64,000 bases of DNA from a bacterium (lineage in GTDB: Bacteria; Verrucomicrobiota; Kiritimatiellia; CAIKKV01; CAITUY01), in the NCBI GenBank assembly GCA_037143135.1, contig JBAWZH010000001.1, positions 9,553 through 73,552 of the forward strand, given 5' to 3'. Below the pieces are notes generated by a model, which was not told the origin of the DNA, did not search any database, and saw only the letters and a list, made by a program, of their open reading frames with translations. Below, in pieces: positions 4,140 through 33,011 of the stretch. A program made the position numbers and the translations under genes. Positions within the stretch are counted from its first letter, which is position 1, and every line of letters starts with the position of its first letter.

Positions 4140-4174
4140 GGTGCCTTTTTGAGCAATAAGAAAGGGAATGAACG

Positions 4175-9169: not shown

Positions 9170-9652
9170 TCATCGCGGTCTGTACGTGCGGATAAAATTC
9201 ACCAGATCAGATCCTGTCTTGACGATGACGCGCTTTACCGAGCGTCCAAATGCAATTTGCGCATTCGGAAATACTAGAACCGATACGATCCAGGGTTTCC
9301 TCCTGAATAACTGCTCAGTTATGCTCCGTATCCACCGGATGCCCCGGTTGATCTGTGAAATGGGGTTGGAGGAAAAGCGATGGCGGTTGATTAAAAGATG
9401 TTTTCCGTCCCAGGTAACATTCCCCTCATGCGACTTGGTTTCAATGAGGAATATGATGCCATCGGGACGAACAACTACATGATCCAGATTGCCATAAGGA
9501 TATGGCACATTATTCAGTATGAGGCAACCATCTGAGAGAAGGGGTGTCAGCAACCTGCAGATTTCTTGTTCTGCCACCACCCATCGGGCGTTCTCTGTGC
9601 GACTTTCTCGATCATAAGTGGTTTTGCCACGGACGGTGTCTTTCTGAACCAT
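9170..9652 (-). CDS. NERD-domain (nuclease-related) protein
   Basis: LDHVVVRPDGIIFLIETKSHEGNV matches the NERD core (GEIDHLVIxxxGVFVIExK). Confidence 0.5.
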   Translation of the reverse strand: MVQKDTVRGKTTYDRESRTENARWVVAEQEICRLLTPLLSDGCLILNNVPYPYGNLDHVVVRPDGIIFLIETKSHEGNVTWDGKHLLINRHRFSSNPISQINRGIRWIRSITEQLFRRKPWIVSVLVFPNAQIAFGRSVKRVIVKTGSDLVNFIRTYRPR

Positions 9653-10272: not shown

Positions 10273-10986
10273 ATGAACACAATCAAAGACGACTTTAAGC
10301 TTGGGGTAATGGAGACTATAGCGGCCTCTTTTAACGGCGCATTTGCAATGAATGACATAACAACACTCGAGGACGACAGCAGGCTTATTGTTCCGATTTG
10401 CGGCTTAATCGAAGCATGCCTGCCAGTGCCCACGTTGCACATCGTCGAACGACCGTCTCTCATTCTTATTGAGGCGCATGCATTGGCGGTTCTTGGATCC
10501 CCTGGCAGCCTAATGAACTGCGTTCCCCAGGAACTTCTAGCGTTCTTTTTAAACGAAAAGGATCTGAAGGAGGGCGATGAACGCCTGAAGCTTAGCGCCA
10601 TGATCCTGCGGATGTGCGCTAACACATATCTTTCAAGTGTGCGCACTCAAGACGAACTGCTTGCCTCCGTCATCCAAGCCTCGAATATCAACGCCATGAT
10701 CACTAAGGCGGTCAAGGATCCGCTCGACGGGGAAATTTATGTCTCGGCGTATGTCTTTAGTGATTTTCTTTGTATCCCAAAGGAAGTTGACATGGTAGCG
10801 CAGGGTGTCTTGGATCACGCCAGTCGCATTCGTAAATTCATCCAGATCATGCGTCGCATGGTGCTTCCCGACACTACAAGGTGGGAAGATCTTGCGGCCG
10901 CCTTGTTGGTAGCAAATTCTGCACAGGCGTCTAGCGGGGAAGCCACTCCTTCGTCTTCCAACTCGTCGCCTCGTGCCACTCTGTAG
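10273..10986 (+). CDS. Hypothetical protein
   Basis: 237-aa ORF preceded by a GGAGAG RBS-like sequence. No motifs recognised. Confidence 0.35.
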   Translation: MNTIKDDFKLGVMETIAASFNGAFAMNDITTLEDDSRLIVPICGLIEACLPVPTLHIVERPSLILIEAHALAVLGSPGSLMNCVPQELLAFFLNEKDLKEGDERLKLSAMILRMCANTYLSSVRTQDELLASVIQASNINAMITKAVKDPLDGEIYVSAYVFSDFLCIPKEVDMVAQGVLDHASRIRKFIQIMRRMVLPDTTRWEDLAAALLVANSAQASSGEATPSSSNSSPRATL

Positions 10987-11017
10987 ATTGAAATGACAAA
11001 TATGAGGAGATGCAGCC

Positions 11018-11962
11018 GTGAAACCTCGAACTCCAGAAAGCGCAGGCATCGCTAAGTCAATTGCTCTCACCAGGAAACTGGCCTTATCCCAGTTCTCGGG
11101 CCAAAATGTTGCTATTGGTCCTGAGTTTCTGGCAGCAGGAATATTGAAATCTCTCCCTGATGGTGGCGAGTATTTGAAGAGTTGCGGCCTGGCGCATATC
11201 GCTACGTTTATGTCCAGTATGCCTGATGCTTTAGAGTCAGAAATGGACAAGGTTCCGCCATTACAAGTTACCGATGAACTGAATCTGCTGCTGAACAGCA
11301 AACTTAGCGGGTTTAAGGATGGAACGCTATCGGCTAAAGATGCTTTACGTATCCTTCTGGAAATTCCGGGCATCACTGATCGACTGGTAACGCTTTCTGA
11401 GGATATACAAAATAGGCAGAATCCGGTTATTGGTGAACGTGAAATAATGGCGAGGGTAACAAGGCTGTTTCAGTATGGTTACAGGCTAGCCCTGACGTAC
11501 TATTCTCCGGATTCGAAAATAGGCATCTCTGAATTCGCGACTGAACAACCGACTCAGTCTTTTCTTAAGGCCGCTGACGAGTATCGAAAGGAACGTGATG
11601 CCGTGCGCAGCATGATGTACAGCGGCCCCCGAAAACAAAAAATGTCCGCTTATGAACGATACATGCGTACCTATGGTCCCTTTACGGCTGATGTCGCCAC
11701 GGCGGTCGTTGTCAACGAGTTAACTCCTTATGTTTGTGATGGGTCGCTGATAACGGTGCGTGACATCGCTTACACGATTGCGCCTTATGATTACCACCGA
11801 ATGGCTGGCAAAGTAATTGAGGCGGTACAAACCTTGAAAAAGGATGCCCTTGTCCGCCTTTTCCCGGAGCCGGATTATTGTCAAATGTTCTCTGGCGTTC
11901 TGCCCACCGAGGCTCTGATCAGCGATTATACTCAATATCTTGGTAGATCGGCTGATTGGTAA
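11018..11962 (+). CDS. Hypothetical protein (N-terminus weakly Clp_N-like)
   Basis: The N-terminal AKSIALTRKLALSQFSGQNVAIGPEFLAAGILK is reminiscent of a Clp_N repeat. Weak. Confidence 0.35.
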   Translation: MKPRTPESAGIAKSIALTRKLALSQFSGQNVAIGPEFLAAGILKSLPDGGEYLKSCGLAHIATFMSSMPDALESEMDKVPPLQVTDELNLLLNSKLSGFKDGTLSAKDALRILLEIPGITDRLVTLSEDIQNRQNPVIGEREIMARVTRLFQYGYRLALTYYSPDSKIGISEFATEQPTQSFLKAADEYRKERDAVRSMMYSGPRKQKMSAYERYMRTYGPFTADVATAVVVNELTPYVCDGSLITVRDIAYTIAPYDYHRMAGKVIEAVQTLKKDALVRLFPEPDYCQMFSGVLPTEALISDYTQYLGRSADW

Positions 11963-12181
11963 CTCTGGTGGATGACGCGCGGAGGGTGGCCGGTGCTCGA
12001 CCATCCGGCACCCACGAACAAAAATGGCCAGCATGAAAAATCTTCGAGTGATTCATTTCAGGATTGGATGTTTATATGGTGTCGGACCTGACGAAAGCCA
12101 TGTTTGAGGGAAGCCGCCGACCCAGTCACCGATCTAGTCGAGCGACCCAGTCGTGAGGTGAAATAAGGTTAGAAATAGTGC

Positions 12182-12210
12182 TTGACTCAGAAAGCGTACG
12201 CATCGTAAGC
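12182..12210 (+). promoter_or_regulatory. Putative sigma70-type promoter upstream of the HTH regulator gene (TTGACT, 17 nt, TAAGCT)
   Basis: ttgactcagaaagcgtacgcatcgtaagct lies immediately upstream of the 12218 start. Contains the palindrome GCGTACGC, a possible operator. Confidence 0.3.
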
Positions 12211-12217
12211 TGACAGC

Positions 12218-12571
12218 ATGAACGATTCATTAGGCAAACGAATACGTGAGCTTCGAGAAGCCAAGGATCTGTCGCTGAGAGATCTGGCTAAGAAGATTAA
12301 CGTTTCAGCTGCATTCCTGTCAGATGTTGAGTTAGAACGGCGTTATCCCTCCGAGGATAAGCTCTTGCTGCTTGCTACGGAACTTGGTGTCCCGACCGAG
12401 GATCTTCGGCGTTTCGACACGCGGGTGCCAGTGAAAGCTTTGCAGGAGGCATCCCGCCGAGACCCGACGGTAGGAATGGCACTTCGTTCCATTCTAAAAT
12501 CTGGAATCTCGTTCGATGAATTGAATGAGATCGCTCAGAAGAAAAAGGCGGAGGAGGTTGACGAAAAGTGA
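12218..12571 (+). CDS. capH: XRE/Cro-C1-type HTH transcriptional regulator (CapH-like)
   Basis: LRELREAKDLSLRDLAKKINVSAAFLSDVE is a canonical HTH_XRE. Its stop overlaps the next gene, which has an HEXXH motif. Sits directly upstream of a CBASS-type operon. Confidence 0.65.
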   Translation: MNDSLGKRIRELREAKDLSLRDLAKKINVSAAFLSDVELERRYPSEDKLLLLATELGVPTEDLRRFDTRVPVKALQEASRRDPTVGMALRSILKSGISFDELNEIAQKKKAEEVDEK

Positions 12572-13284
12572 GAACACGCCGATCACAATCAGGTCCCTTC
12601 AAGGAAAAGGTCTATTATCGGGACAGTGATTTCGAGGGTATCTGTCTCGATGCCCTGAAAGCATCAGCCTGCCTCCCCGCTTCACCATCTCCGGTGAGGA
12701 TAGATCGGTTTGTCGAGAAGCATTTCGCTAGTCTCCAGTTTGCGGATCTCGGGCCGAACATCCTTGGTTGTACCGAATTCTCGGCTAAGGGCGTTAGTGC
12801 GATCCTCATATCCTCTTCCTTGGAAGAGGAGCCAGGAAAGCCTGCGGAACGTAGGCTCCGATCCACGATTGCCCACGAAGCTGGCCATGGATTGCTTCAT
12901 GCACATCTGTTTGCCGACTTGGCTGCGGCACAGGCGCAATCGCAATTCGCGGATTGGACGAACCCCTCGAAGCCGCGGATCTTGTGCCGCGAGATTGAGG
13001 GGCTGTCTCCGTCCGTGAGGGTATCTTCATATGCTGGCCGTTGGTGGGAGTATCAGGCAAATAGGTGTATTGGGTCGCTGCTACTTCCTCAGAAACTCTT
13101 CACAGAGGCGATCAGGCCATACGGCCAGATGAAAGGCATGTTGGGAACCCTCGTTGTGCCATCTGACAAACGGCAAGTCGCTGCTGAGGGCTTGGCCGAG
13201 GTGTTTGATGTAAACCCTGCTGCAGTTAGGATTCGGATGGATCAGCTTTTCCCAGAAACTCAGGAGAATCAGCTTTCACTGTGA
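12568..13284 (+). CDS. capP: ImmA/IrrE-family Zn metallopeptidase (CapP-like)
   Basis: The HEXXH motif IAHEAGHGLLHAH. 4-bp overlap with the HTH gene. This pairing is typical of CapH/CapP regulators of CBASS. Confidence 0.65.
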   Translation: MRTRRSQSGPFKEKVYYRDSDFEGICLDALKASACLPASPSPVRIDRFVEKHFASLQFADLGPNILGCTEFSAKGVSAILISSSLEEEPGKPAERRLRSTIAHEAGHGLLHAHLFADLAAAQAQSQFADWTNPSKPRILCREIEGLSPSVRVSSYAGRWWEYQANRCIGSLLLPQKLFTEAIRPYGQMKGMLGTLVVPSDKRQVAAEGLAEVFDVNPAAVRIRMDQLFPETQENQLSL

Positions 13285-13359
13285 TTTTTTTTGGATTTAG
13301 TGTCCGCTTTGTCGGCTGACACTGTTGTTGTGAGAATACGTAAACTAGGAGACTGAAGA

Positions 13360-13881
13360 ATGACAGACATGACAAATGAGCAGAAATTCCAGGTTCTGAT
13401 GGCCGAGTTGCAGGAACGATACGATTCGTCTCATAAGATCCGGGACCGAAGCACACAGTTCACCTTATGGATTTCAGGTATGGCGATTGGCCTATCGTGG
13501 TTGTTAGTCAGCGAAGCTGTGCTATCCACACTACAAAAAGTCGCGATCACATTGTTGACTCTCGCGCTCTATTTTGGGGCAGTCTTCTTGATTCGTGCCC
13601 TTCATAAGGGTGCCCACGCAAACCGTGAAGCCATGATCAGAACAGAACGGGCGCTAGGCATGTATGAAAAGGGACTGTATTTGCAAGACGTTACATTGCT
13701 TCCTACTCAATATGGGCACACCGTTCCAAAGTGGAGTCACGATTCATGTACGCTCCCAATCTGGTTGACGGTGGTAGCCGTTGCCTTACTGATCCTGACC
13801 TGGACAACCCCATGTTCTCGAAAACAACAGAGTGAATCAACACAACCGCAACAACAGACAGGAGTACACAACCATGGCTGA
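13360..13881 (+). CDS. Small multi-TM protein, candidate membrane effector of the adjacent CBASS-type operon
   Basis: Soluble ~40-aa N-terminus, then 3 predicted TM helices (FTLWISGMAIGLSWLLV; VAITLLTLALYFGAVFLI; LPIWLTVVAVALLILTW). Its 3' end overlaps the cyclase start. Confidence 0.4.
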   Translation: MTDMTNEQKFQVLMAELQERYDSSHKIRDRSTQFTLWISGMAIGLSWLLVSEAVLSTLQKVAITLLTLALYFGAVFLIRALHKGAHANREAMIRTERALGMYEKGLYLQDVTLLPTQYGHTVPKWSHDSCTLPIWLTVVAVALLILTWTTPCSRKQQSESTQPQQQTGVHNHG

Positions 13882-14863
13882 CCTACACAGTGAATTCGGA
13901 ACATTCCACGATAAAGTCGCTCTTTCCTCAAGCAAGAAGGCGTCTTTACGCACATCGCGAGACGCCATTCGTGACCGTATTCGCAAACACTTTATTGAGG
14001 TTCTGAAAGTCGATCCTCCAAAGTTCCATGCCCAGGGCTCATTTACCATGGTAACGACAATGAACCCGCTCGACGGCGAGTTCGACATCGACGATGGTGT
14101 TTACCTGCAACACTTGGATCCTCATGACAGCAGCAAATGGCCGACGCCTGAAACCGTCCATGGATGGATCATCGACGCTATTGATGATCATACGGATGAG
14201 AAGCCGATAGACAAGCGCACGTGTGTTCGTGTTCAGTACGCAGGGCAGTATCATGTGGACCTCCCATCCTATGCCAAACTGAATGGCGATTACATGCTGG
14301 CAGTCAAAGGAGATGCCGGTTGGCATCGCAGCGATCCAAAAGCTATCACCGACTGGTTCAAGAAGCGCGTGAAACAGAACGGTGAGCAATTTCGGCGCAT
14401 CGTGCGTTATCTGAAGGCATGGACTGACTACCAGTCTGGGAAGCGTGGTAAGATGCCGAATGGACTGATCATGACCGTTCTGGCATCAGACTGTTTCTGC
14501 GCGGATGCACGAGATGATGTGTCTCTGGCAAATACCGCCGCCGCCATCAAGCGTGCCGTCACACCAGTCTTCTGTGTTCGCAACCCAACTGACACCTCAG
14601 AGGAGATCACACGACGCTTGACAGATGAGCAAAAGAGTCGTTTCCAGGCGGCAATAACGGACTTAGCGGCAGATGGTGCGGCTGCCGTCGCGGAGAAAAG
14701 CAGGAAGAAGGCGTCGAAGCTATGGCAGGGGCAACTGGGTGATCGTTTTCCTCTAATTGATGAAGAGGATAGTAAAGATGAAGACCGAAAGAAAGAGGAT
14801 GCCAACCGACTGGCGGCGTTCTTCGTGTCCACGAAGCCCCCAAAGCCATGGGCATTCCAATGA
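13874..14863 (+). CDS. cGAS/DncV-like nucleotidyltransferase (CD-NTase/SMODS) of a CBASS-type system
   Basis: Polymerase-beta-fold signature QGSFTMVTTMNPLDGEFDIDDGVYL (GS...[DE]hD). The N-terminal helix resembles CD-NTases. ATG at 13874 with GGAG 9 nt upstream; the tool start at 13832 is less likely. Confidence 0.65.
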   Translation: MADLHSEFGTFHDKVALSSSKKASLRTSRDAIRDRIRKHFIEVLKVDPPKFHAQGSFTMVTTMNPLDGEFDIDDGVYLQHLDPHDSSKWPTPETVHGWIIDAIDDHTDEKPIDKRTCVRVQYAGQYHVDLPSYAKLNGDYMLAVKGDAGWHRSDPKAITDWFKKRVKQNGEQFRRIVRYLKAWTDYQSGKRGKMPNGLIMTVLASDCFCADARDDVSLANTAAAIKRAVTPVFCVRNPTDTSEEITRRLTDEQKSRFQAAITDLAADGAAAVAEKSRKKASKLWQGQLGDRFPLIDEEDSKDEDRKKEDANRLAAFFVSTKPPKPWAFQ

Positions 14864-15672
14864 CTGCCTGGTACCAGATCAACCAGCGGCTCTTTCGGAA
14901 GGAAAAGGCGGCACTAGAAACTGCTCAGCCAGGCATGAGCCTCGAAATACGAGAAACTGGTTTCAGGATCAATCGGGAGCTCAGTCTTAAACGGGAATGC
15001 GCTGTCGCCGCTGGCGTCTTCAGCCTCAAAGCTCCTGGGACGGGAGTCTATGACTATCGGATCGCCGTGCTCCCGCCGGATAACTACCCTGCATCTCCGT
15101 GCATAGTCTTCTGCGATGATCCACGATTACCGATCGGCAACATCGATCGTCACATTCTCTCCGATGGACAGGCATGCCTGGCGGTTCCTGGGGATCTTTG
15201 GCATCGCTGGAGGCCTGAAGACGGCATCGTCGGTTTTCTTGATGAATTCGTTGCGCCATTTCTGGCATGGCAGGTGTACTACGATGCACATGGGTGTCCG
15301 CCTCCTTGGGGACAGCGGGCTCATGGTCTCCTGGGCATAACCGAGTACTACACGGAAGTCTTGGGCATTCCAGCCGAATCCAACATTACCGCATTCATTC
15401 CGCTCATTGCCCGGAAGAATCCCCCACAAGGCCACGAAACATGCCCTTGTGGCTCAGGACTCCGTCTCCGGCATTGCCATATTAAAGAATTAAGAGAAGC
15501 TCGATCACGGATCCCCTGGCAGGCCGCAAAGCAGGATCTCTCCGCCGTATCTCGGATCGTGGGAAACAGGAACAATGGCAATAAACAACCTGGCTCACTC
15601 GCTTCAATAAAGGTGTCTAGTTTTGCAGAATCAAGATCAATGTCCACAACCGTCGCCGCAGGCGAAGGCTGA
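14860..15672 (+). CDS. E2-like (UBC-fold) protein with a C-terminal SEC-C zinc motif; Cap2-type E2-only partner
   Basis: RHILSDGQACLAVP resembles the E2 HPN...C catalytic motif. C-terminal CPCGSGLRLRHCH is a SEC-C-type Zn motif. The start overlaps the cyclase stop (ATGA). No E1 or JAB gene is adjacent. Confidence 0.45.
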   Translation: MTAWYQINQRLFRKEKAALETAQPGMSLEIRETGFRINRELSLKRECAVAAGVFSLKAPGTGVYDYRIAVLPPDNYPASPCIVFCDDPRLPIGNIDRHILSDGQACLAVPGDLWHRWRPEDGIVGFLDEFVAPFLAWQVYYDAHGCPPPWGQRAHGLLGITEYYTEVLGIPAESNITAFIPLIARKNPPQGHETCPCGSGLRLRHCHIKELREARSRIPWQAAKQDLSAVSRIVGNRNNGNKQPGSLASIKVSSFAESRSMSTTVAAGEG

Positions 15673-15689
15673 ATCAGGACCGAAAGGAG

Positions 15690-15911
15690 GTGAAAAATAT
15701 GGCGAAAGATGCAGAAGGTATGCGGGGCTATCGGTCTCGGAACGAAAACGGTCACTTACGTGACACCCGAGATGATAAGCATGTCGGCACTCTGGAGAAG
15801 CAGTACAATCGTGACTTCGGGGTTCGGAAAGACATGCATGTTGGCACTCTCTTGAAGGAAACTGGAAAGGCGTCAGTCAATGACCTTGTTCACAGTAATA
15901 TCGGCAAGTAG
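15690..15911 (+). CDS. Small hypothetical protein (73 aa) with a strong RBS
   Basis: AAAGGAGGTG sits 7 nt upstream of the ATG. Contains an internal duplicated DxHVGTL motif. Confidence 0.35.
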   Translation: MKNMAKDAEGMRGYRSRNENGHLRDTRDDKHVGTLEKQYNRDFGVRKDMHVGTLLKETGKASVNDLVHSNIGK

Positions 15912-16006
15912 TAGTGACCACCCGGGGAACACGCGCTAAGTCTAATGGGAGGCCCATAACCGGCGCGTGTTCTTTTTCCATAGCCCAATCATTCTTTCGT
16001 CCGTCC

Positions 16007-16480
16007 TTATTTGCGTATAAAGAATATGAGGCCCAGCAGAATGGCCATGCCAACAATGGCAACTCCGATAGATAAGAAGTTCCGTGGAGCGACACCTTCT
16101 CTCCTCATTAACAGCCGCCACCCTTGCTCGTATTCAACATATTTTCGCATCACTGGTCCCGGATCAGGGCCGAGTGATGAAACAAAGACAGTGCATGATT
16201 GAGCCATGATATCTCTTTGTCTTCTGTCTCCCGCCAGATGAGACCATGCTGAAATAAACGAGGATGCCAGCATGTATCGGTGCATTAAGGATAGCTCATC
16301 GAGAGAAAGGGACATCGAGCGCGACCAATCAGAATCAGTTGCCGTGCTTGCCCCCTCAATAAATGCTCTTAATCCATTCGTGTAGACCAAAGCTATCGCG
16401 GGCGGATGTCTATTAATTGCCTGTTCCTGTTGATCTGTGAGCTCTGCTATATGCTGAAGTGATTTTTGCTTCTCAGTCAT
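16007..16480 (-). CDS. Hypothetical tail-anchored membrane protein (C-terminal TM), co-operonic with the PLD nuclease
   Basis: C-terminal hydrophobic segment LSIGVAIVGMAILLGLIFFI. Its start overlaps the PLD gene stop. Confidence 0.4.
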   Translation of the reverse strand: MTEKQKSLQHIAELTDQQEQAINRHPPAIALVYTNGLRAFIEGASTATDSDWSRSMSLSLDELSLMHRYMLASSFISAWSHLAGDRRQRDIMAQSCTVFVSSLGPDPGPVMRKYVEYEQGWRLLMRREGVAPRNFLSIGVAIVGMAILLGLIFFIRK

Positions 16481-17010
16481 TTTCCCTCGTAAATATCAGA
16501 ATGAGCTGCATGAGTTTTCCAGTTCTTAAGATACTTCTCTGCTAGAGTCGGATCCCTAATTACAAGGATGTTTTCAGCGTTATTACTTTCCGCCGCCTTG
16601 GTAAAGTTAAAACTCCCGGTGATCACAATATTTTCATCAATGACTATGACCTTGTTATGGGCAATGGCGTGCTGGGCATCTATCATCGTTTCGATCCCTG
16701 AGTGAGCAAAGAAGTCTGCCGAAGAATATTTCCCGGTTCGTTGGCTCTTGTCCAAAATAACGCTTACCTTAACACCCTGCTTATGGGCATTCAGGAGCGC
16801 CTTCGCGATGGTATCGGATGTGAATGAGTATGCCTGCACATGGATGGTGGTTCGTGCCTTTGCTATCTCAGCGACGATGGCTGCAGTACACCCGCCCTGC
16901 GGTGAGAAATAGACCGCCCAGGCCGGGTTTGTGCCGTTTGCCCAGACCGGGCCTGATAGTAGAGCAGCTAAGCAGACTGCAAAAAGCGATGAAAATCTAG
17001 ACCCAGTCAT
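16477..17010 (-). CDS. Secreted phospholipase-D-family (Nuc-like) endonuclease
   Basis: Signal peptide (FSSLFAVCLAALLSGPVWA). A single HKD motif HNKVIVIDENIVITGSFNFT...N. The ~175-aa size matches Nuc-type PLD nucleases. Confidence 0.6.
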   Translation of the reverse strand: MTGSRFSSLFAVCLAALLSGPVWANGTNPAWAVYFSPQGGCTAAIVAEIAKARTTIHVQAYSFTSDTIAKALLNAHKQGVKVSVILDKSQRTGKYSSADFFAHSGIETMIDAQHAIAHNKVIVIDENIVITGSFNFTKAAESNNAENILVIRDPTLAEKYLKNWKTHAAHSDIYEGK

Positions 17011-17269
17011 GCAGGGACATTAGCACCGTTCCTTCGTAATGAAAACCGTGATGACGAGCTGATGGAAGCGCATATGCCGGAAAAGGGTAAAATCCACCGC
17101 CAGAAACGGGGTTTACCCTCTTGATTGACAGCAGCAATCGTGTCGCCGACAGGTGAAAACTAGACAGAATATACCATGGTCTTGACATCTGGAGGCACCT
17201 AAGTTACAAGATTCAACTAGAGCAACGGCGAATAACTGTGATTCGATTGCGTCATTGAGGTTCACTGCA

Positions 17270-17500
17270 ATGCCACATGAAAAACAGATCAAGCATGATG
17301 ATGTATTGAACGCTGACGAGGCTTCCACCTGGCTTAAAATCCCTAAGTCCACCCTCTACAAGTTATGTAGCGAAGGTGAACTGCCGGCCGCAAAGGTGGG
17401 GCGTCATTGGCGATTCCACCGGGAAACGCTTGAGCAATGGTTGTTAGAGAAGACTCAGCGCCCCCAGGCCGATGACCCAGAAGCCAATTCAGAGGAATAA
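17270..17500 (+). CDS. HTH_17 (excisionase/AlpA/MerR-like) DNA-binding protein
   Basis: LKIPKSTLYKLCSEGELPAAKVGRHWRFHRETLEQW. First gene of the kinase operon. Confidence 0.5.
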   Translation: MPHEKQIKHDDVLNADEASTWLKIPKSTLYKLCSEGELPAAKVGRHWRFHRETLEQWLLEKTQRPQADDPEANSEE

Positions 17501-18608
17501 TATGCCACTTCTCCAGGAAGGCTTAAATATACGAGGGACATACGAAGTGGAGAAATTCCTCGGCGAGGGCGCTTTTGCCGAGGTTTACCGCGTCCGGCAC
17601 CGGTTTCTTGGCCGACAGGCCATGAAGGTTTTCAAGCGCCTTAACATGACCGAAGAGGAAGTGCTCGATGCGCTGAATGAGGCGATTCTGCTGACGCACC
17701 TCAAACACCCCAATATTGTTAGTGTCCACGATGCAAACGTTTTTGAATTTCCCAAAGGTGTCTGCGGCTACTTCACAATGGAATTTGTGCCAGGGGGCAG
17801 TCTTGATAGGTTTTGGAGATCGCACGGCTCCACTCTTGTCCCGATTGAGACGACGGTCGACGTCATGCGTCAGGTATGCCGGGGTCTTTCCATTGCTCAT
17901 GCAGGAACCCCACCCATCATTCACCGTGACATAAAACCTCAAAATATTCTCGTGGGTTATGAGGCCGACGGGCTTCGCGCCCGAGTAAGCGATTTCGGAT
18001 TAGCCAAGAAGGTTAATCCGCTGACACTCCTTGCAACTGCTGCCGGGACGCTTCAATTCAAACCCCCGGAAACATTTCTGAAGTCGAAGGCAGATTCGTG
18101 TGCAGCTGACGTTTGGGCGCTTGGTGTGACGCTCTACCTCTTATTAACCGATCAATTTCCCTTCGAGCTTGATTCTGATTTGGGCTGGTCAAACAAGAAG
18201 GCATTTGAAAAGGAAATCACTCCTCCCAATTCATGGAACGTCGAAGTCGATCCTGCCCTTGAGAAAATTGTTTACAAATGTCTCAAGCCGAAACCAGAGG
18301 ATCGATATCCGACAGCCAAAGAATTGCTTGAAGCCTTGGAATCCTGGAAAAAGCCTTCACCCTCCAAAATCATCAAGCCGGCAAAAACAGTTTCTTCGGA
18401 AATGTCAAAAAGCATTCTTGGGGCACATTCACCTATCAATCAAGAAGAAGGTCATCGCCTAGTCAAGCAAGCCGTCAAGAAGGCTAAGGAAGAGGGGCGA
18501 TTGTTTGAGGCTGCTGATCTTATGGAAGAGGCTTTTAACAAGTCGCCATCACTTCGGCAGAAGTATGCGAACCAAGTCAAACTATGGCGTTGCGGCATCA
18601 GCATGTAA
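17472..18608 (+). CDS. Ser/Thr protein kinase (Hanks-type)
   Basis: AMKVF (VAIK lysine), HRDIKPQNIL, DFGLAK, and an APE-like motif. The catalytic residues are complete. Confidence 0.8.
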   Translation: MTQKPIQRNNMPLLQEGLNIRGTYEVEKFLGEGAFAEVYRVRHRFLGRQAMKVFKRLNMTEEEVLDALNEAILLTHLKHPNIVSVHDANVFEFPKGVCGYFTMEFVPGGSLDRFWRSHGSTLVPIETTVDVMRQVCRGLSIAHAGTPPIIHRDIKPQNILVGYEADGLRARVSDFGLAKKVNPLTLLATAAGTLQFKPPETFLKSKADSCAADVWALGVTLYLLLTDQFPFELDSDLGWSNKKAFEKEITPPNSWNVEVDPALEKIVYKCLKPKPEDRYPTAKELLEALESWKKPSPSKIIKPAKTVSSEMSKSILGAHSPINQEEGHRLVKQAVKKAKEEGRLFEAADLMEEAFNKSPSLRQKYANQVKLWRCGISM

Positions 18609-18612
18609 ACCA

Positions 18613-21420
18613 ATGAACACCAACGAAGATATATACGAATGTCGTTTGGCGGCAGAAGGTGGCGATGCCGAAGCCCAGTACCAGCTGGGCTTGAAGTTCG
18701 TTAACGGACAAGGTGTAGAAAAGGATGAGGCAGAAGCTGTAAGGTGGTATCGAAAAGCTGCCGAACAGGGGCATTCTACTTGTCAATATTTCCTTGGCTG
18801 GTATCTCGCCAACGGTCGGGGTGTTGAAAAGAATGAAGCGGAAGCCGTCACATGGTATCGAAAAGCTGCCACTCAGAATGTTTTAGGCGCACAATTTGAC
18901 CTTGGGGTTATGTATGCCAATGGTCGTGGCGTGACTAAGGATGCTGTTGAGGCGGCTAAATGGGCTCGCAAGGCAGCTGAACAGGGGCATGCAGAAGGTC
19001 AATATTATCTTGGGTGGTATCTCGCCCGTGGTCAGGGAGTGAATAAGGACGAAGTAGCGGCAGTCACATGGTATCGTAAGGCCGCTGAACAGGGTAATGC
19101 TGGCGCGCAGTGCGAAATGGGGATTATGTGTGCCGATGGGCGAGGTACGGGAAAAGATGCAGCAGAAGCCGCGATGTGGTTTCGCAAGGCCGCAGCTCAG
19201 GGAAACAAGAAAGCGCAGGAACTTCTATCCAATCTGCCTCAAGCAGCTCAAACAATACAAGCCCCAGCGGCTAAACCACGAGCCGCAAGTCGTGAAGCAA
19301 AAGCGGCTGCGCCAGAGTGCAAACCCCTATTGGATGCCAGTACACCCAGAGTTTACGTCCAAAACGCCTTCAGAATCACGGGACTTGCTGTTGATGCACA
19401 AACGCGAGACATCAAGCGTCGCATCGATGACCTAAAACACGCCGAAGAAAATGGGGAAGCAGAGGATGAGCATAATCATGCGTTTGCAATTGTTCCGCCC
19501 CCCTCAATTGAACATATCCGTGAAGCTGCACAGAGATTGCATGATCCGGAGCGTCGTCTAATCGAGGAGTTCTTTTGGTTTTGGCCTAGTGAATGGGGTA
19601 AAGGGAATTCAGATCCCTCATTACTTGCGATGAAGAATGGGGATAAAGACACCGCGTTTAAGAATTGGCTGGCATGTATCTCCGATGACGCCAAGAGTGG
19701 AGTCGTTTCGCGAAATGGAGGAATAGTAATCCGCGATCAGTCGGCTTTGGCAAGCCCTCGCGAAATTGCGGTTGCCAAGCATAATCTTGCAGTGATGTAT
19801 CAACTGGTTGCTCTCGACTCAGAGCATCACGTTCTGGAAAACGAATTTACTGCGGCACAACTTGAAACCATCGAGCAATATTGGCGTAAATGTTTCAAAT
19901 GGTGGGAAGAACTAACTGAGGACGAAACCTTTTGGAGCCTGATAACTGAGAGAATTCGCATGTATAACGAGCCGGAACGCCTCAAAACCGGATTTGCTCG
20001 ACAAATGCGTGCTTCTCTCCCGGAGGCGATGGACAAAATCAATGCCATGCTGGCAATTAGCTATTCTGAACGCGGGAAACTGGCGCTAGCGGAGAATCAC
20101 ATCCGTTATATGAAGGAGACGCATCAAGGTCAGGATGATATTGAGAAAACCTTAGCAATGGTGACGCAACCGCTTAAGGCTCGTGTCATAAGTTATGTGG
20201 AGAAAGCTACTGGCGTGGCGGATAGGCAACCACAGCAAGCCGCTAAATCGGCACGTGAATTGTTGCAGGCGGTTGCCGAACCAATGAAGATCATTCAGCA
20301 GATCCTGTCGCCAGAGGATCACGTGCGAATTGATCTATTCGACAGCGTCGCTGAAGCGTGCCTGACATGCCAACTTGCCTATGCGCGCGAAACGAAAGAT
20401 TGGTCAGCGAGCCTAGCAATTATCGAAGATGGCGCCAAGTACGCCGTCTCCAGTGAGACGAAAAAAAGACTTGCCGAGAATATTGCAAAAGTTACCAGAA
20501 ATAAACTTTTCGGGCAGTATATTGAACCTCTAGCAGAGTTAATTGAGAAGAGCCGAGCCAGAAGTTCAACAGCGGCGAAAGTGAGATCCGTTGAAGAGAA
20601 TCTGCTGCCCTACCTTAAGAAAATAGAGAGTGCCAAAGGCGTTAGCATTGATGTCTATAATGAGTGTGCGGATCTTGTTGCACTCTTTGTCCGGGGGGTA
20701 TCAATTTCTGCATATAATGAGGATAACGATTTGGCCGGCTCGATTAACATTTTAAATATTGCGCTAAACACAGCTCGAGGCCGAGAAGCACGTGAACAAT
20801 TGCAAAAAGATAAAGATCAGCTTAAAGGTTTTGAGGCTGAATCCACCAAACATAATCTTCGTATGCAGATTCGTGGTGACGACATTGAGATCACTCGCGA
20901 CTATGTTCGCTACAAACAGGATAAAATTCCAGTTTCTCAAATCCAAGGCGTTAAATTTGGTGTCTTTGTGCAGTACACAAACGGCGTGGAATCAAGTTCA
21001 TCGTATTTGATCGATATTACGGATGGCGGCAACATAAGAATCCACATTGAGTGCAAGCGAATATTTCGCGGTAAATCAGATGCCGAACAGGATTACAGAC
21101 GGATCCTCGACGCGATTTTTGAGCAGATCGCCACTCCGCTAGTTCAGAAGTTGGCTCAAAGCGTAGTCGCGGGGCGACCCTTGCAGATGGGGGGAGCTCG
21201 ATTAACGTCCGAAGGAGTCTATCTAACAACAGGATCTCTTTGGTGGCAAAAAGAAATAATGGTCCCGTGGTCAGACATCCGATACGGAAATCATCAAGGT
21301 TCGCTGAATCTGTCATCATCAAAGGATAAGAATATTTCTACTTCCATGGCATTACGTGACGCGTGGAATGCTGTTTTCTTTGAATATATTGCCAAAGCAG
21401 TAGTAAAGCTTAAAGGCTAA
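18613..21420 (+). CDS. Sel1/TPR-like repeat protein with a large uncharacterised C-terminal domain
   Basis: About 7 Sel1 repeats (AEAQYQLGLKFVNGQGVEKDEAEAVRWYRKAAEQGH, and so on), then ~650 aa of unknown family. ATG at 18613 follows the kinase stop; the tool start at 18505 would overlap by 104 bp. Confidence 0.6.
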   Translation: MNTNEDIYECRLAAEGGDAEAQYQLGLKFVNGQGVEKDEAEAVRWYRKAAEQGHSTCQYFLGWYLANGRGVEKNEAEAVTWYRKAATQNVLGAQFDLGVMYANGRGVTKDAVEAAKWARKAAEQGHAEGQYYLGWYLARGQGVNKDEVAAVTWYRKAAEQGNAGAQCEMGIMCADGRGTGKDAAEAAMWFRKAAAQGNKKAQELLSNLPQAAQTIQAPAAKPRAASREAKAAAPECKPLLDASTPRVYVQNAFRITGLAVDAQTRDIKRRIDDLKHAEENGEAEDEHNHAFAIVPPPSIEHIREAAQRLHDPERRLIEEFFWFWPSEWGKGNSDPSLLAMKNGDKDTAFKNWLACISDDAKSGVVSRNGGIVIRDQSALASPREIAVAKHNLAVMYQLVALDSEHHVLENEFTAAQLETIEQYWRKCFKWWEELTEDETFWSLITERIRMYNEPERLKTGFARQMRASLPEAMDKINAMLAISYSERGKLALAENHIRYMKETHQGQDDIEKTLAMVTQPLKARVISYVEKATGVADRQPQQAAKSARELLQAVAEPMKIIQQILSPEDHVRIDLFDSVAEACLTCQLAYARETKDWSASLAIIEDGAKYAVSSETKKRLAENIAKVTRNKLFGQYIEPLAELIEKSRARSSTAAKVRSVEENLLPYLKKIESAKGVSIDVYNECADLVALFVRGVSISAYNEDNDLAGSINILNIALNTARGREAREQLQKDKDQLKGFEAESTKHNLRMQIRGDDIEITRDYVRYKQDKIPVSQIQGVKFGVFVQYTNGVESSSSYLIDITDGGNIRIHIECKRIFRGKSDAEQDYRRILDAIFEQIATPLVQKLAQSVVAGRPLQMGGARLTSEGVYLTTGSLWWQKEIMVPWSDIRYGNHQGSLNLSSSKDKNISTSMALRDAWNAVFFEYIAKAVVKLKG

Positions 21421-21470: not shown

Positions 21471-22034
21471 ATGAGCAAACAGAAGCGTATGCAGGCGAGT
21501 CCGCCGAGTCGTGGTATTGTCCACATGTTTAACATGCTTAATCTCAAGCTCCCAAAGGAGCTGCGACTTCCTCCCCTCAATGACGCACCTAATTTAAACG
21601 CCCTTAAGACTCGCTTCAATGAGCTTGAAGCATTGTTGGCGCGGTCGAAGACTTCAACCCGAATCTCATCTTCTACCCCGGCTGCACCGAATCTTGATGA
21701 AAAAGCGATTGCGAACCTGGCCACTAATGCTTGGCGTGCTAAAACCAAGATGCTTGACCAGGATTCGGGTGAAGTTAAGGAAGAAATGAAGCGTGTGTAT
21801 CGGCACATTGAAGCTATCTTTGAAACGCTGAAAGGGCTGGGTGCTGAGATTCTTGACCCATGCGGTCGAAATTATGATTCCGGCATGGCGTTAAAGGTTA
21901 TCAGTTTTGAGCCGACCCCGGGAGTTTCAAAGGAAGAAATTAAGGAAACAATCAAACCATCTGTGATGTGGCAAGGACGCCTTATACAAATGGGTGAGGT
22001 AATTGTGGGTACTCCCAGCAAAGTAGATAAATGA
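21471..22034 (+). CDS. Hypothetical protein (187 aa), translationally coupled to the Hsp70-like gene
   Basis: ATGA overlap with the downstream gene. No motifs recognised. Confidence 0.4.
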   Translation: MSKQKRMQASPPSRGIVHMFNMLNLKLPKELRLPPLNDAPNLNALKTRFNELEALLARSKTSTRISSSTPAAPNLDEKAIANLATNAWRAKTKMLDQDSGEVKEEMKRVYRHIEAIFETLKGLGAEILDPCGRNYDSGMALKVISFEPTPGVSKEEIKETIKPSVMWQGRLIQMGEVIVGTPSKVDK

Positions 22035-24529
22035 TTAATGAGGGAATGAATATGACAAGAACAACTATTGACTTCGGAATCGATCTTGGGACAACAAACA
22101 GCGCGATCGCTGTTCTAAATGGCACGCGGCCCGATGTCATTAAAAACAACGTGGATACTGATATTACTCCGTCGGCTGTGTTTATTGATAAGCGTGGATT
22201 GGTTCAAGTAGGTCAACGTGCAAAGAATCGCCAGGAGGATGAAAGCGCTGTAGACGACGTTTACATTGAGTTCAAACGCCGCATGGGTACTGACCACCGG
22301 TACGAGTTCAAAACAGCGGCGCGAACTATGCGGCCAGAAGAAGTTTCCGCCGAAGTCCTGAAAAGTTTACGTGGTGATGTTCAACAACGCCTGGGTGAGG
22401 ATGTCCAATCAGCCGTTATTACTGTGCCTGCTATATTTGAACAGAATCAATGTGCGGCAACTATTAAGGCTGGGCAACTTGCAGGGTTTGTTCAGTGTCC
22501 ACTGCTTCAAGAACCGGTTGCGGCAGCTCTTGCCTATGGTTTTCAATCTGATGTTACAAAAGAGTATTGGCTCATTTACGACTTCGGTGGCGGTACATTT
22601 GACGCTGCAATCATGAAGGCGGAAGACGGTGGTATTAGCGTGGTTAATCACGGTGGGGATAACTACCTTGGCGGCTCTGATATTGACTGGGCAATTATCG
22701 ATCAATTGATAATTCCAGACCTTAAGTCAAAGTTCAACCTGCCCGAGTTTTCGAGAAATAACAATAAATGGCGGACCGAATTTGCTCGCATTAAAAATGC
22801 AGTTGAAATTGCGAAAATTCAGCTTTCTCGCAGTGATACTGCCTTTTTGGAAGGGGGTGTGCTTAAAGATGCGGATGGGAAAAGGGTGGAACTGGATTTC
22901 AAGCTAACCAGAAATGCACTTGTTGGAGTTGCCGAGCCATTCATTATGCGCTCGGTCGAAATATGCAAAAGAGTTTTGAAGGAGAAGGGGCTATCGCCGA
23001 CTGCAATCGAGAAGGTTATTCTGGTTGGTGGGCCAACCCTTGCGCCATATTTCCGTGATATGCTGAAGTCCGGCTTAGGTATTCACCTTGATCATTCCGT
23101 AGATCCGCTGGTTGTTGTGGCGAAGGGTGCTGCTGTGTTTGCAGGAACTCAACGATTTGATACTGGTGCGGCGCCTCGACCCATTGCGGGCGAGTACAGC
23201 GTCGACCTGAAATACAAACCCGTTGGCGCTGATGAGGATCCGACTGTTCGAGGGGAAGTTACAGCAGATTCCGGCACAAGTATTGAGGGATTAACAATTG
23301 AGTTCGTCAATAATAAGAGCCTCTGGCGGAGCGGTAAAATTCCGCTAAAAACAGGAGGGAAATTTAAAGTCAACTTGTTGGCAGAGAAAGGCGGCCAAAA
23401 TGTATTCAGTATTGAGCTTGTAGACTCAAAAGGGCGCAAGCAGATTGTTAAACCGGATAATCTCTCCTACACAATCGGTATGGCGATATCTGAGCAGCCG
23501 TTTTGTAACGATGTTCGGTTAGCACTTGCAAATAACGATAGTGAGATATTCTTTAAAAAAGGTGATGCGTATCCCGCTACGCATTCATACCGGGGTTTCA
23601 AGACAACTCAAACGGTTCGCAAAGGCGAAAGTGGTGACATGCTCCGCATTCCAGTGGTTGAAGGTAATGAGGAGAAAGCAGACTGGAACCGCAAGTTGGG
23701 TGAACTAGTCATTTCCGGATCACAAATTAGACGCGACGTGCCTGCTGGCAGTGACCTTGAGGTTACTTTGCACGCAAAAGGTCCGGGAGCAATCCTCGCC
23801 AAAGCATATGTACCGTTGCTTGATGAGGAATTTGAGGCGATTATTGATTATGATAGGAAAGAACTGAATGTTAAGGATTTGCGCCGCCAATTTGAAGCCG
23901 AGTCAAAACGGCTTAAATCTTTAACTGCTAAAGCGAATGATGCAGAAGATGAGGGCGCTGGTAACTTGCTCGAAAGCGTGCCCGATATGGAAGTGATAGA
24001 CGGCCTCCTTGATACGGCAAAGGGGGATCCTGACTCGGCAAAAAAAGCGGAAAAGCGACTTATTGAATTGCGCATTCATTTGGATAAGGCCGAAGATTTA
24101 CTCAAATGGCCCGCGCTGGTGACGGAAGCCAAAACGGCGCTTGATGATTTAGATGAACTGATCGAGAAACACGGCGACGATACTCATCGCGATCAAAGTG
24201 CAAAATTCCGGGATCAGATTAAAGATCTAATTACCCAAAAACGCACTGAACCATTACGAAAGAAAGTCGCTCAAGTCTCAGATCTGCGTCTTGAAATACT
24301 TTTAGCACAACCAGGTTGGTGGGTGGGTTACCTTGAATATCTCATCGAACGACAGGGTAAGATGAATGATCAAGATAGCGCCGAGCGTCTTATCAATCAG
24401 GGAAGGCTTGCTATCAGCAAAAACAATCTTCAGGGGTTGCGTAGCGCCGTTGTCCAACTCTTAGACCTCTTGCCTAAGGAGGTTCAGGATGAAGTTCAGA
24501 GGGGATTTGGATCGGGAGTAATCAAGTAA
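22031..24529 (+). CDS. Hsp70/DnaK-family ATPase with a divergent long C-terminal region
   Basis: Hsp70 nucleotide-binding-domain motifs: IDLGTTNSAIAV (phosphate-1), IYDFGGGTFD (phosphate-2/connect-1), ILVGGPTLAPYFRDML (adenosine motif). The C-terminal ~450 aa is unlike the canonical substrate-binding domain. Confidence 0.7.
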   Translation: MINEGMNMTRTTIDFGIDLGTTNSAIAVLNGTRPDVIKNNVDTDITPSAVFIDKRGLVQVGQRAKNRQEDESAVDDVYIEFKRRMGTDHRYEFKTAARTMRPEEVSAEVLKSLRGDVQQRLGEDVQSAVITVPAIFEQNQCAATIKAGQLAGFVQCPLLQEPVAAALAYGFQSDVTKEYWLIYDFGGGTFDAAIMKAEDGGISVVNHGGDNYLGGSDIDWAIIDQLIIPDLKSKFNLPEFSRNNNKWRTEFARIKNAVEIAKIQLSRSDTAFLEGGVLKDADGKRVELDFKLTRNALVGVAEPFIMRSVEICKRVLKEKGLSPTAIEKVILVGGPTLAPYFRDMLKSGLGIHLDHSVDPLVVVAKGAAVFAGTQRFDTGAAPRPIAGEYSVDLKYKPVGADEDPTVRGEVTADSGTSIEGLTIEFVNNKSLWRSGKIPLKTGGKFKVNLLAEKGGQNVFSIELVDSKGRKQIVKPDNLSYTIGMAISEQPFCNDVRLALANNDSEIFFKKGDAYPATHSYRGFKTTQTVRKGESGDMLRIPVVEGNEEKADWNRKLGELVISGSQIRRDVPAGSDLEVTLHAKGPGAILAKAYVPLLDEEFEAIIDYDRKELNVKDLRRQFEAESKRLKSLTAKANDAEDEGAGNLLESVPDMEVIDGLLDTAKGDPDSAKKAEKRLIELRIHLDKAEDLLKWPALVTEAKTALDDLDELIEKHGDDTHRDQSAKFRDQIKDLITQKRTEPLRKKVAQVSDLRLEILLAQPGWWVGYLEYLIERQGKMNDQDSAERLINQGRLAISKNNLQGLRSAVVQLLDLLPKEVQDEVQRGFGSGVIK

Positions 24530-24640
24530 GGACGGTACGTCTTACGACCATAATTAGGAGTTCTTTTTGTCAGTACCAAGGCATAAGAAACAGTGATGGA
24601 TTCCAGGGTTAGCGGTCAATGCAAGTGAACGGCGATCTTC

Positions 24641-25897: not shown

Positions 25898-25945
25898 GTG
25901 CGACAATCCGCTTGTGACTGCGGTCATTGCGAGGAAGGTAAAGTA

Positions 25946-33009: not shown

Positions 33010-33011
33010 CC

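Follow-up and report, generated by a model that had tools for sequence, protein, structure and literature searches.

A type II-short (E2-only) CBASS operon with a zinc-knuckle E2 and a KPW-tagged cyclase in a defence island of a Kiritimatiellia bacterium

This study focuses on a five-gene operon in a stretch of 64,000 nucleotides from a bacterium of the Kiritimatiellia (Verrucomicrobiota; contig JBAWZH010000001.1, positions 9,553 to 73,552), referred to below as the window. Its sequence identifies it as an antiphage signalling system based on cyclic oligonucleotides (CBASS) of the type II-short, or E2-only, kind, accompanied by CapH/CapP-like regulators. This kind of system is already known, and represents the smallest known ubiquitin-like conjugation machine; one example, with a short E2, has been dissected. 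That example, from Serratia marcescens, is composed of CdnG, an E2 and a 2TM-SAVED protein (Yan et al.; bioRxiv 10.1101/2022.05.25.493364; PMC12948482). The Serratia CdnG is a clade G enzyme of 407 aa, in which a ubiquitin-like helix and three-stranded sheet (residues 352-398) dock the E2 (PMC12948482). The E2 itself has 162 aa, with C101, H87, H152, K151 and K159 as the residues of note and an unstructured C-terminal tail, and with no E1 it removes E407 of its cGAS and links G406 to C101 or K159 (bioRxiv 10.1101/2022.05.25.493364; PMC12948482).

The regulatory genes capH and capP of CBASS lie, in the vast majority of cases, upstream of the operon and divergent from it, sharing its promoter region (Lau et al., bioRxiv 10.1101/2022.04.27.489752). 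Escherichia coli CapP, of 288 aa, combines peptidase, helix-turn-helix (HTH) and GAF domains, the GAF domain (residues 182-288) providing half of a groove for single-stranded DNA (ssDNA) that it forms with the peptidase domain; about 33% of CapPs have a cysteine-switch loop (Calloji et al., bioRxiv 10.64898/2026.05.16.725639).

The operon of the window comprises five co-directional genes on the plus strand (12218-15672), overlapping or closely spaced and intact, for a CapH-like repressor, a CapP-like peptidase, a small protein with three transmembrane (TM) segments, a cGAS/DncV-like nucleotidyltransferase (CD-NTase) and a protein with the UBC fold of ubiquitin-conjugating E2 enzymes (Table 1). 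The GTG start of the capP-like gene overlaps the capH stop by 4 nt (aaGTGAgaa), and a gap of 75 bp separates this gene from that of the three-TM protein. The CD-NTase gene is flanked on both sides by stop/start overlaps: its ATG at 13874, with AGGAG nine bases upstream, lies 8 nt inside the three-TM gene, and its own stop overlaps the E2 start at 14860 as ATGA. An alternative E2 start (ATG 14848) would give 274 aa, and E2 residue numbers follow this longer open reading frame (ORF); a gene caller run on the source metagenome contig gave 270 aa. A set of 43 related loci (numbered L001 onwards where a number is needed), together with plasmid loci, served for comparison. The gene order is found again in many independent loci from several phyla, and the arrangement is therefore not due to chance.

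No ThiF/E1 or JAB domain was matched in any ORF scanned within the window, nor was either found among the called or annotated genes flanking the cyclase–E2 pair in the related loci and plasmids inspected. Most of these features had been read from the letters alone in an initial annotation, and they stand: the five-gene layout on the plus strand, the XRE HTH gene overlapping that of an ImmA/IrrE peptidase with a HEXXH motif (here HEAGH), a small protein with three hydrophobic segments, a CD-NTase with a GS...DID signature (present as QGSF and DIDD, with CD-NTase profiles matched), an E2-like HxxxxGQAC motif (H102...GQAC110, invariant in homologues), and an E2-only flavour without E1 or JAB (Cap3) genes. 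The preferred reading, which is considered probable from the sequence, is that of a complete and probably functional type II-short CBASS anti-phage operon in a large defence island, working by the mechanism proposed below.

The cyclase, its C-terminal tag and the long E2

The nucleotidyltransferase is, on its sequence matches, a CBASS cyclase, and a cyclic-nucleotide product is predicted. The motifs QGSF, DIDD and HVDLP are readily recognized, and the protein matches the PADLOC Cyclase model PDLC00774 over its full length (E=5e-108, 359 bits), the NCBIfam model NF041078 'CBASS cGAMP synthase' (235 bits, against a cut-off of 150) and the Pfam models DncV-like_NTFase (PF21654), SMODS (PF18144) and DncV_C. 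The best solved relative is the CdnB of Bacteroides fragilis (BfCdnB/CdnB04, PDB 7LJO; E=1.3e-48 over residues 1-302). Every significant nucleotidyltransferase match was to the CD-NTase family, and no HEPN partner is present at the locus.

Beyond the last core motif (GDRFPLI), the cyclase carries only about 33 residues, consisting of an acidic low-complexity linker and the tag KPWAFQ. Judged from the sequence, this leaves no room for the helix and three-stranded sheet of the Serratia enzyme (residues 352-398). The tag is strikingly conserved. Among the closest CD-NTase homologues, all 120 of 120 have an ending of the Y-x-A-K-N-P-x-K-P-W-x type, P-x-[KR]-P-[WY], in which the residue after the tryptophan is most often G (58) or A (42), followed by V (7), S (6), I (5) and others, and exactly two further, variable residues come after that position in 102 of the 120. 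In a clade of cyclases linked to patatin genes (27-33% identity to the window cyclase), most members end in KP[WY]-[AGS] plus a tail of up to 13 residues, and in two of them Q or E replaces the lysine of the tag. The motif is also highly specific: when all ORFs of at least 150 aa in six frames of the 43 loci were inspected, [KR]P[WY] occurred near the end of 27 of 638, and 26 of these 27 lie directly upstream of an E2 gene. It persists on partners whose E2s share only 21-26% identity, including a Vibrio CdnG (PKPWFKQ) and the partners in Cytobacillus (PKPWGDTY), Ligilactobacillus (TKPWRN), Haliscomenobacter (VKPWCRS) and Aliarcobacter (AKPWKNI), and it is found on other enzymes as well, namely a Pycsar-type cyclase of Chryseobacterium (NRPWLKRS) and a hydrolase of the metallo-beta-lactamase (MBL) fold in Runella (AKPWQRG).

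Three of the plasmid loci deserve a brief description. On the Vibrio gigantis plasmid (L047, 1567-4606), the cyclase is 99% identical to V. cholerae CdnG (PDB 9WOO) and ends PKPWFKQ; it is followed by a long E2 of 233 aa with a CxC...C knuckle, that is, by the same E2-and-tag module as in the window. V. cholerae CdnG is described as a clade G enzyme that makes 3',2'-cGAMP and has an HNH-SAVED nuclease as effector, and a term search of that CdnG-Cap5 study brought up no mention of an E2 (PMC12804361, JBC). The plasmid pA2BH1 of Chryseobacterium sp. (L044, NZ_MN657149.1, 2524-4645) encodes a PycTM-like effector, a class III cyclase (PADLOC PycC, E=2e-116) and a long SEC-C E2. Upstream of them sit a divergently oriented sigma-70 gene, a hypothetical one and a gene for an ImmA/IrrE peptidase. 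There seems to have been no discussion of ubiquitin-like regulation for a Pycsar cyclase. On the Runella slithyformis plasmid pRUNSL03 (L049, NC_015694.1, 2204-3941), an MBL-fold metallo-hydrolase (...NAKPWQRG) precedes a long SEC-C E2, and a TM protein and more MBL-fold genes lie downstream of the latter. The E2-and-tag module may thus serve enzymes other than cyclases. A search for literature on KPW together with CBASS gave nothing relevant in the searchable literature, which is incomplete.

On sequence grounds, a C-terminus that is recognised and trimmed would be expected to show a strictly conserved motif and, behind it, a short tail of variable sequence. Since the motif is strict and the tail short and variable, and since the Serratia E2 does exactly this, a similar E1-free chemistry of trimming and linking, at or beside the residue after the tryptophan, is inferred by analogy for the window. 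Given the variation at that position, a C-terminus of the Gly type is not a requirement, and the scissile bond can be placed only approximately. The initial annotation had raised the conjugation competence of the KPWAFQ end: this ending fits the conserved P-x-K-P-W-[G/A]-x-x, which speaks for processing and conjugation, although Ala takes the place of Gly.

Four PADLOC E2 models, which are 216-241 positions long, match the E2 protein over almost all of their length (E-values from about 1e-33 to 5e-36). The UBC fold, which the initial annotation had anticipated for this protein, emerges from three approaches. An AlphaFold2 (AF2) model built on 26 homologues (mean predicted local distance difference test score, pLDDT, 85.8) displays the UBC layout, with an N-terminal helix and four strands, then the Cys loop and a long crossover helix, followed at residues 150-243 by three further helices and the knuckle (pLDDT mostly >85) and by a disordered end at residues 245-269 (pLDDT <50). 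Foldseek searches of the Protein Data Bank (PDB) with this model retrieved UEV and UBC domains (TSG101, UbcH7, Ubc9, UFC1) at E-values down to 3e-5 and target-normalised TM-scores of 0.55-0.64. A profile of ten diverse long E2s matched eukaryotic E2s (E=6.6e-7) with the His and Cys aligned, and separately matched the zinc peptides of SecA (7.5e-5). H102 and C110 align with the His of the HPN motif and the catalytic Cys of eukaryotic E2s, and are invariant in 26 close and 10 distant homologues. The distant sequences include those of the Chryseobacterium, Cytobacillus, Ligilactobacillus and Vibrio plasmids (21-24% identity to the window E2) and, in the same alignment, E2s from metagenome-assembled genomes (L029, L031 and L036; 29-35%). 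Across this alignment G56, P81, H102, C110, H159 and G163 are invariant, as are three cysteines of the knuckle.

The knuckle, CPCGSGLRLRHCH at residues 199-211, is matched by the Pfam model SEC-C (PF02810) at residues 197-211 (21.9 bits, against a cut-off of 20.4). It has the pattern C-x-C-x8-C-[HC], putatively zinc-binding, and aligns to the zinc-binding peptide of SecA (1ozb). C199, C201 and C210 are invariant across the E2 superfamily, and among the 26 close homologues H102, C110 and the stretch GHE-x-CPCGSG-x-x-LR-x-CH are invariant or nearly so. The initial annotation had taken a zinc knuckle on such an E2 to be non-standard, an impression that is not borne out. An exhaustive search of 1.84 billion representative sequences with a long-E2 hidden Markov model returned 2,117 clusters at a threshold of E<=1e-3, and 1,323 at the stricter one of E<=1e-10. 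Of the best 150 matches, 138 were full-length proteins, and among these the CxC...C..[HC] knuckle is present in 137, the strict SEC-C spacing in 132 and the H..C motif in 136. PADLOC models 859, 861, 865, 870, 871 and 872 match long E2s from end to end, knuckle included, so the family is already catalogued as CBASS E2. By its sequence, the SEC-C knuckle is a standard hallmark of a large E2-only family and no oddity. The searchable literature, which is incomplete, yielded no paper on a zinc or SEC-C module in a CBASS E2, and nothing relevant on SEC-C together with CBASS, SMODS or CD-NTase. As far as could be found, long knuckle E2s with KPW-tagged cyclases form a large subclass that has been catalogued and whose mechanism is unstudied.

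The triad of effector, cyclase and E2 is kept in about 15 of the related loci, and elsewhere the cyclase and E2 are accompanied by other effectors: patatin in L031-L037, SAVED-HNH in Vibrio, and 2TM or 4TM proteins on plasmids. In L031-L037, from Gemmatimonadota and Bryobacterales (about 3800-5000 in each), a patatin-like phospholipase (LALDGGGMRG) replaces the three-TM protein within a capH-capP-...-cyclase-E2 frame. Four loci (L013, L016, L020 and L021) have long-E2 genes without an intact cyclase gene upstream; L020 and L021 retain cyclase fragments only, and the E2 gene of L021 is split. They appear to be copies of the module that are decaying or orphaned.

Regulators, three-TM protein and genomic surroundings

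The CapH-like protein matches Pfam HTH_3 (E=5.9e-13) and PADLOC capH (E=1.2e-11), and its nearest solved relatives include the cleavable repressors DdrO, CapH (7t5u) and ImmR (7t8i). In CapH, the N-terminal XRE HTH domain is joined by a C-terminal oligomerisation domain; the C-terminal 50 residues of the window protein are conserved among orthologues, and do not align to the capH model past position 69 of 103. The CapP-like protein carries HEAGH at residues 103-107 and E161-YQAN...LLLP. It matches PADLOC capP (E=8.1e-9) only at model positions 19-123 of 242, its match to Pfam M78 is weak, and no solved relatives were found for it. In an alignment of eight orthologues (231-241 aa), H103, E104, H107, C140, E161 and N165 are invariant, as is the sequence R-I-[LM]-C140-R-x-E-D within the 53-residue loop between HExxH and the Glu ligand; zinc coordination is putative. 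This C140 with its acidic residues resembles the CapP cysteine switch (C114, D117 and D118 in E. coli). Only 77 residues follow E161, compared to 160 after E128 in E. coli CapP, and by length and alignment the GAF domain is missing.

The candidate promoter of the capH-like gene has a geometry that would give a near-leaderless mRNA, and its proposed function is inferred from the sequence. It contains two GTAAGCTTAC-like sites (12190-12199 and 12205-12214), and the best match to GTAAGCTTAC in the whole window, with one mismatch, falls here. The motif is not enriched window-wide (10 matches, 15 expected), and only its position in the capH promoter is suggestive. A consensus scan did not flag this promoter: between 11900 and 16600, promoter-like sites were fewer than in shuffled controls, with none upstream of any operon gene, and terminator-like sites were within the shuffled range. 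An Rfam scan of 11000-17500 gave zero matches. Related loci have the same -10/dyad element both upstream of capH and in the capP–effector gap, where it takes the form of a sigma-70-like promoter with a GTAAGC..GCTTAC dyad over the -10.

The regulator pair recurs directly before the operon, and without exception on its strand, at the place shared by L001/L002 and in L007, L031, L032 and L034-L037. These eight loci, about one third of those related, come from different phyla and carry two different effectors. The initial annotation had seen here the CapH/CapP arrangement that de-represses CBASS after DNA damage. The PADLOC capH and capP matches, and the recurrence of the pair at this operon type, sustain the likeness, whereas the GAF-less peptidase and the co-directional genes depart from it. 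Because of these two departures from the described pairs, DNA damage as the trigger can be offered by analogy only. An alternative, rather unlikely yet deserving attention, is that the two genes form a generic ImmR/ImmA switch, responding to another signal or merely autoregulating, with the CBASS genes largely independent of it. Such a switch would fit a peptidase that lacks the GAF domain forming the ssDNA groove in CapP and IrrE, a gene orientation other than the mostly divergent one described for capH/capP, the restriction of the pair to a third of related loci, and a capP–effector gap in the window with no operator-like site. It fits less well with capH and capP being the best matches in the defence library, with the invariant Cys and acidic residues of the HExxH-to-Glu loop, with the position of the pair immediately upstream of such operons in distant phyla, beside different effectors, or with the shared dyad at both promoters of the relatives. 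A CapH/CapP-like switch controlling the operon is considered likely.

The three-TM protein has hydropathy segments at about residues 34-50, 60-82 and 128-153, and is proposed as the effector on the basis of its position, the modularity of the operon and the prevalence of TM effectors. It stands directly upstream of the cyclase in about 15 loci, and its homologues, of 166-190 aa, number more than 271, none of them annotated. Polar residues are invariant in its N-terminal helix (E19, R20, Y21, H25, R28 and R30) and in the loop between TM2 and TM3 (E96), where N88 and R89 are also nearly invariant. Lys and Arg number 5 and 7 in the N-terminal and TM2–TM3 regions, compared to 1 and 2 in the other loops, so by the positive-inside rule these two regions would be cytoplasmic. 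The AF2 model is all-helical and of low confidence (pLDDT 64). A known family was sought by scanning 13 members at E<=10 against Pfam, PADLOC and NCBIfam, with chance TM matches only, and kinship to PycTM was rejected after profile comparison (match probability 0.2%).

Just downstream of the E2 gene, a 73-aa ORF was considered as a further component and rejected, as none of the 43 related loci has a homologue of it; it probably does not belong to the system and may not be a gene. The operon lies within a defence island, with genes for NERD, PLD nuclease, STAND, SNF2, SIR2-HerA, type III restriction-modification and KAP proteins around it (Table 1). The region 22031-28329 could be another defence system, and 31648-34784 looks like a SIR2-HerA defence pair. 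G+C content is 0.53-0.57 at 40001-53000, with a dip to 0.47 at 44-45 kb, compared to 0.45-0.50 elsewhere in the window, and GC skew is negative from about 45 kb. The rise and the shift in skew suggest either a different origin or a switch of coding strand.

Table 1. Features of the CBASS operon and of its surroundings (window coordinates)
Feature	Position	Strand	Remarks
NERD-domain protein	9170-9652	-	
Two ORFs	10273-11962	+	Immediately before capH; 237 aa and 314 aa; no match in Pfam or PADLOC
Candidate capH promoter/operator	12182-12217	+	TTGACT, 18 nt, TAAGCT, 6 nt to ATG
capH-like XRE-family HTH repressor	12218-12571	+	117 aa
capP-like ImmA/IrrE (M78) zinc metallopeptidase	12568-13284	+	238 aa; no GAF domain
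Imperfect inverted repeat AGTGTCCGC/GCTGACACT	13299-13323	.	In capP–effector gap (75 bp); weak
Putative effector, three-TM membrane protein	13360-13881	+	173 aa; undescribed family
CD-NTase (cGAS/DncV-like cyclase)	13874-14863	+	329 aa; closest to clade B
C-terminal tag KPWA/FQ of CD-NTase	14843-14860	+	Proposed E2 recognition and processing site
E2-only protein, UBC fold, helical extension and SEC-C zinc knuckle	14860-15672	+	270 aa from ATG 14860
E2 active-site stretch H102-ILSDGQA-C110	15151-15177	+	Numbering of the 274-aa ORF
SEC-C zinc knuckle HETCPCGSGLRLRHCH	15433-15480	+	Predicted ligands C199, C201, C210, H211
ORF	15690-15911		73 aa; GTG start; just after E2; internal repeat (HVGTL twice); no family match
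ORF overlapping PLD nuclease	pair 16007-17010	-	157 aa; no family match; hydrophobic C-terminal stretch; pair converges on CBASS operon
PLD-family (Nuc-like) nuclease	16477-17010	-	177 aa; hydrophobic N-terminus; PADLOC DrmC-like, E=8.5e-14
HTH_17 (excisionase-like) protein	from 17255		81 aa; overlaps Ser/Thr kinase
Eukaryotic-type Ser/Thr kinase, then Sel1-repeat protein	17472-21420		378 aa; 971 aa
Hsp70-like protein	22031-24529		832 aa
Two ORFs	24641-25897, 25898-26959		No family match; between Hsp70-like and STAND genes
STAND/NACHT-like NTPase	26956-28329		
SNF2 helicase	28758-31622		
SIR2-like protein overlapping HerA-type helicase	31648-34784		453 aa; 625 aa
N6/N4 DNA methylase, then ResIII helicase-nuclease	35062-39467		575 aa; 893 aa; type III restriction-modification-like
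KAP-family NTPase	39714-41582		

Proposed mechanism and alternatives

A mechanism can be proposed in which the CapH-like repressor would bind the GTAAGCTTAC-like sites of its own promoter and keep the operon low, until a stress signal leads the CapP-like peptidase, with its cysteine-switch-like loop (Cys140), to cleave the repressor and expression rises. A conserved linear tag, P-x-K-P-W-[G/A]-x-x (KPWA/FQ in the window), would let the E2 recognise the CD-NTase by its flexible tail. Without an E1, Cys110 of the E2, acting with His102, would attack the peptide bond, freeing the two-residue tail and leaving the cyclase thioester-linked to the E2, possibly followed by an isopeptide link of the cyclase to the E2 or to other proteins. 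This linkage would tune cyclase activity, as has been shown for the Serratia E2, and the helical extension and the SEC-C knuckle probably form, over the active site, a structured lid or a module for docking. Upon infection, a cyclic nucleotide made by the cyclase would bind the conserved cytoplasmic face of the three-TM protein, which would disrupt the membrane and abort the infection.

Several points weigh against this reading, the support for which is non-biochemical throughout. The precedent is distant: the cyclase is without the ubiquitin-like helix and sheet that recruit the Serratia E2, and the Serratia E2 was missed among solved chains both by a single long-E2 query and by the long-E2 profile, which matched only eukaryotic E2s and SecA peptides. 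The residue after the tryptophan is Ala in the window, and R, F, L, C, K or Q in distant partners, and no acceptor Lys is conserved across the E2 superfamily alignment. The best Foldseek matches of the E2 are UEV domains, which are catalytically dead. Among the other components, the three-TM protein belongs to no known effector family in Pfam, PADLOC or NCBIfam and is poorly modelled, the CapP-like protein is without the GAF domain that makes up half of the ssDNA groove in CapP, and the capP–effector gap holds no clear copy of the promoter and dyad of its relatives.

The UEV matches raise the question of whether the E2-like protein is an enzyme at all. As a non-catalytic, UEV-like adaptor or sensor, it would bind the KPW tail, and perhaps a phage product via the knuckle, and act allosterically with no covalent bond. 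TSG101 and Vps23 UEV domains as best structural matches are what such a role would predict, the highly variable post-tryptophan residue of distant partners would be unusual for a conjugated C-terminus, and SEC-C motifs elsewhere, for example in the matched SecA peptides, are protein-binding zinc modules. An adaptor, however, would not be expected to retain Cys110 and His102 unchanged from 91% down to 21% identity, at the places where true E2s have their catalytic Cys and the His of HPN, or to keep the H..C motif in 136 of 138 representatives, and a tail that is short and variable, looks dispensable and comes after a conserved small residue marks a processed C-terminus. This alternative is judged unlikely, and an active E2 is preferred.

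An active E2 could instead belong to a classical cascade of the Cap2/Cap3 kind, whose E1, and perhaps a peptidase for deconjugation, would be encoded outside the window, which makes only 64 kb of the genome visible. Type II CBASS does normally employ an E1–E2 fusion and a JAB peptidase. Yet no ThiF/E1 or JAB domain was seen in the scanned ORFs of the window or in the inspected flanks of the related loci and plasmids, the cyclase–E2 pair forms a self-contained module that moves with varied effectors, adenylation needs a free C-terminus that the extra tail would block unless a protease acted first, and the Serratia E2 does both jobs alone. An E1 encoded elsewhere is accordingly very improbable. 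Finally, a non-CBASS pol-beta enzyme, such as an MNT-type toxin-antitoxin nucleotidyltransferase at a locus without cyclic-nucleotide signalling, has only the generic GS...DxD signature of the superfamily in its favour and is rejected, with virtually no residual doubt, in view of the full-length PADLOC, NCBIfam and Pfam matches and the solved-structure match to BfCdnB, all of which are to CD-NTases.

If the tag is indeed a processing and attachment site in an E1-free, E2-only CBASS, a single UBC domain would be able to recognise a linear motif and carry out E1-free transpeptidation, a simple sequence rule would become available for finding its substrates, including those that are not cyclases, and ubiquitin-like regulation would extend to Pycsar systems. 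The operon belongs to a much larger and phylogenetically broad subclass (the 1,323 clusters at E<=1e-10), although in practice the locus itself is one more defence-island CBASS. A broader proposal is put forward tentatively, as possible and still open to considerable doubt: the long SEC-C E2 and the [KR]-P-[WY]-x tag, with a tail of usually 2-3 residues, may form a self-contained, E1-independent 'tag-and-tether' module, distinct from the Serratia-type pair of E2 and ubiquitin-like tail and attached to several unrelated immune enzymes, namely CD-NTases near clades B and G, Pycsar pyrimidine cyclases and MBL-fold hydrolases, in which the E2 would read a short linear motif instead of a folded ubiquitin-like domain and transpeptidate at a site that may be other than Gly, the knuckle serving as a lid or infection sensor that gates the reaction.

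Comparison with known systems

The regulator pair shares with CapH/CapP, DdrO/IrrE and ImmR/ImmA an XRE HTH repressor and a HExxH M78 peptidase beside a defence operon, and with CapP, in addition, a loop from HExxH to the third zinc ligand that holds a conserved Cys followed by acidic residues. It differs from CapH/CapP in that the peptidase, of 238 aa, is GAF-less and ImmA-like in domain content, and in that the two genes are co-directional and translationally overlapping. The knuckle shares with the SEC-C motif of SecA (PF02810) both the C-x-C-x8-C-H pattern and the local sequence CPCGSGxKxxxCH, but in the window it sits in a UBC-fold protein of an immune operon, with no link to protein export.

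The operon can be likened to type II CBASS with Cap2 and Cap3 (V. cholerae DncV, E. cloacae CdnD), where a ubiquitin-like transfer enzyme acts on the disordered tail of a CD-NTase and so controls signalling. In contrast to these, the window has no E1 domain and no JAB, the tail has extra residues that would have to be removed and the E2 has a zinc knuckle. Compared to V. cholerae CdnG-Cap5, which pairs a clade G cyclase with an HNH-SAVED nuclease, the window has a clade-B-like cyclase and a three-TM protein.

The Serratia E2-CBASS is closest in plan. In both systems the CD-NTase gene is followed by that of a UBC-fold protein that stands alone and has a His ahead of its catalytic Cys, both are without E1 and JAB and have a membrane protein as effector, a putative one in the window, and both cyclases end in a conserved small residue and a short tail, which is removed in Serratia (G406-E407) and predicted to be removable in the window (A-FQ). 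The parts themselves are dissimilar. The Serratia E2, of 162 aa, has no SEC-C motif, while that of the window, of 270 aa, continues into helices and a SEC-C knuckle; the cyclase of Serratia belongs to clade G and, in its 407 aa, includes a ubiquitin-like fold, while that of the window is a 329-aa, clade-B-like enzyme with an acidic linker and a linear KPW tag; and the effectors are of different families, 2TM-SAVED in Serratia and a three-TM protein here. Altogether, the window departs from the one dissected example in four respects: its long knuckle E2, its short, clade-B-like cyclase with a KPW tag, its putative three-TM effector of an undescribed family, and its GAF-less, co-directional CapP.

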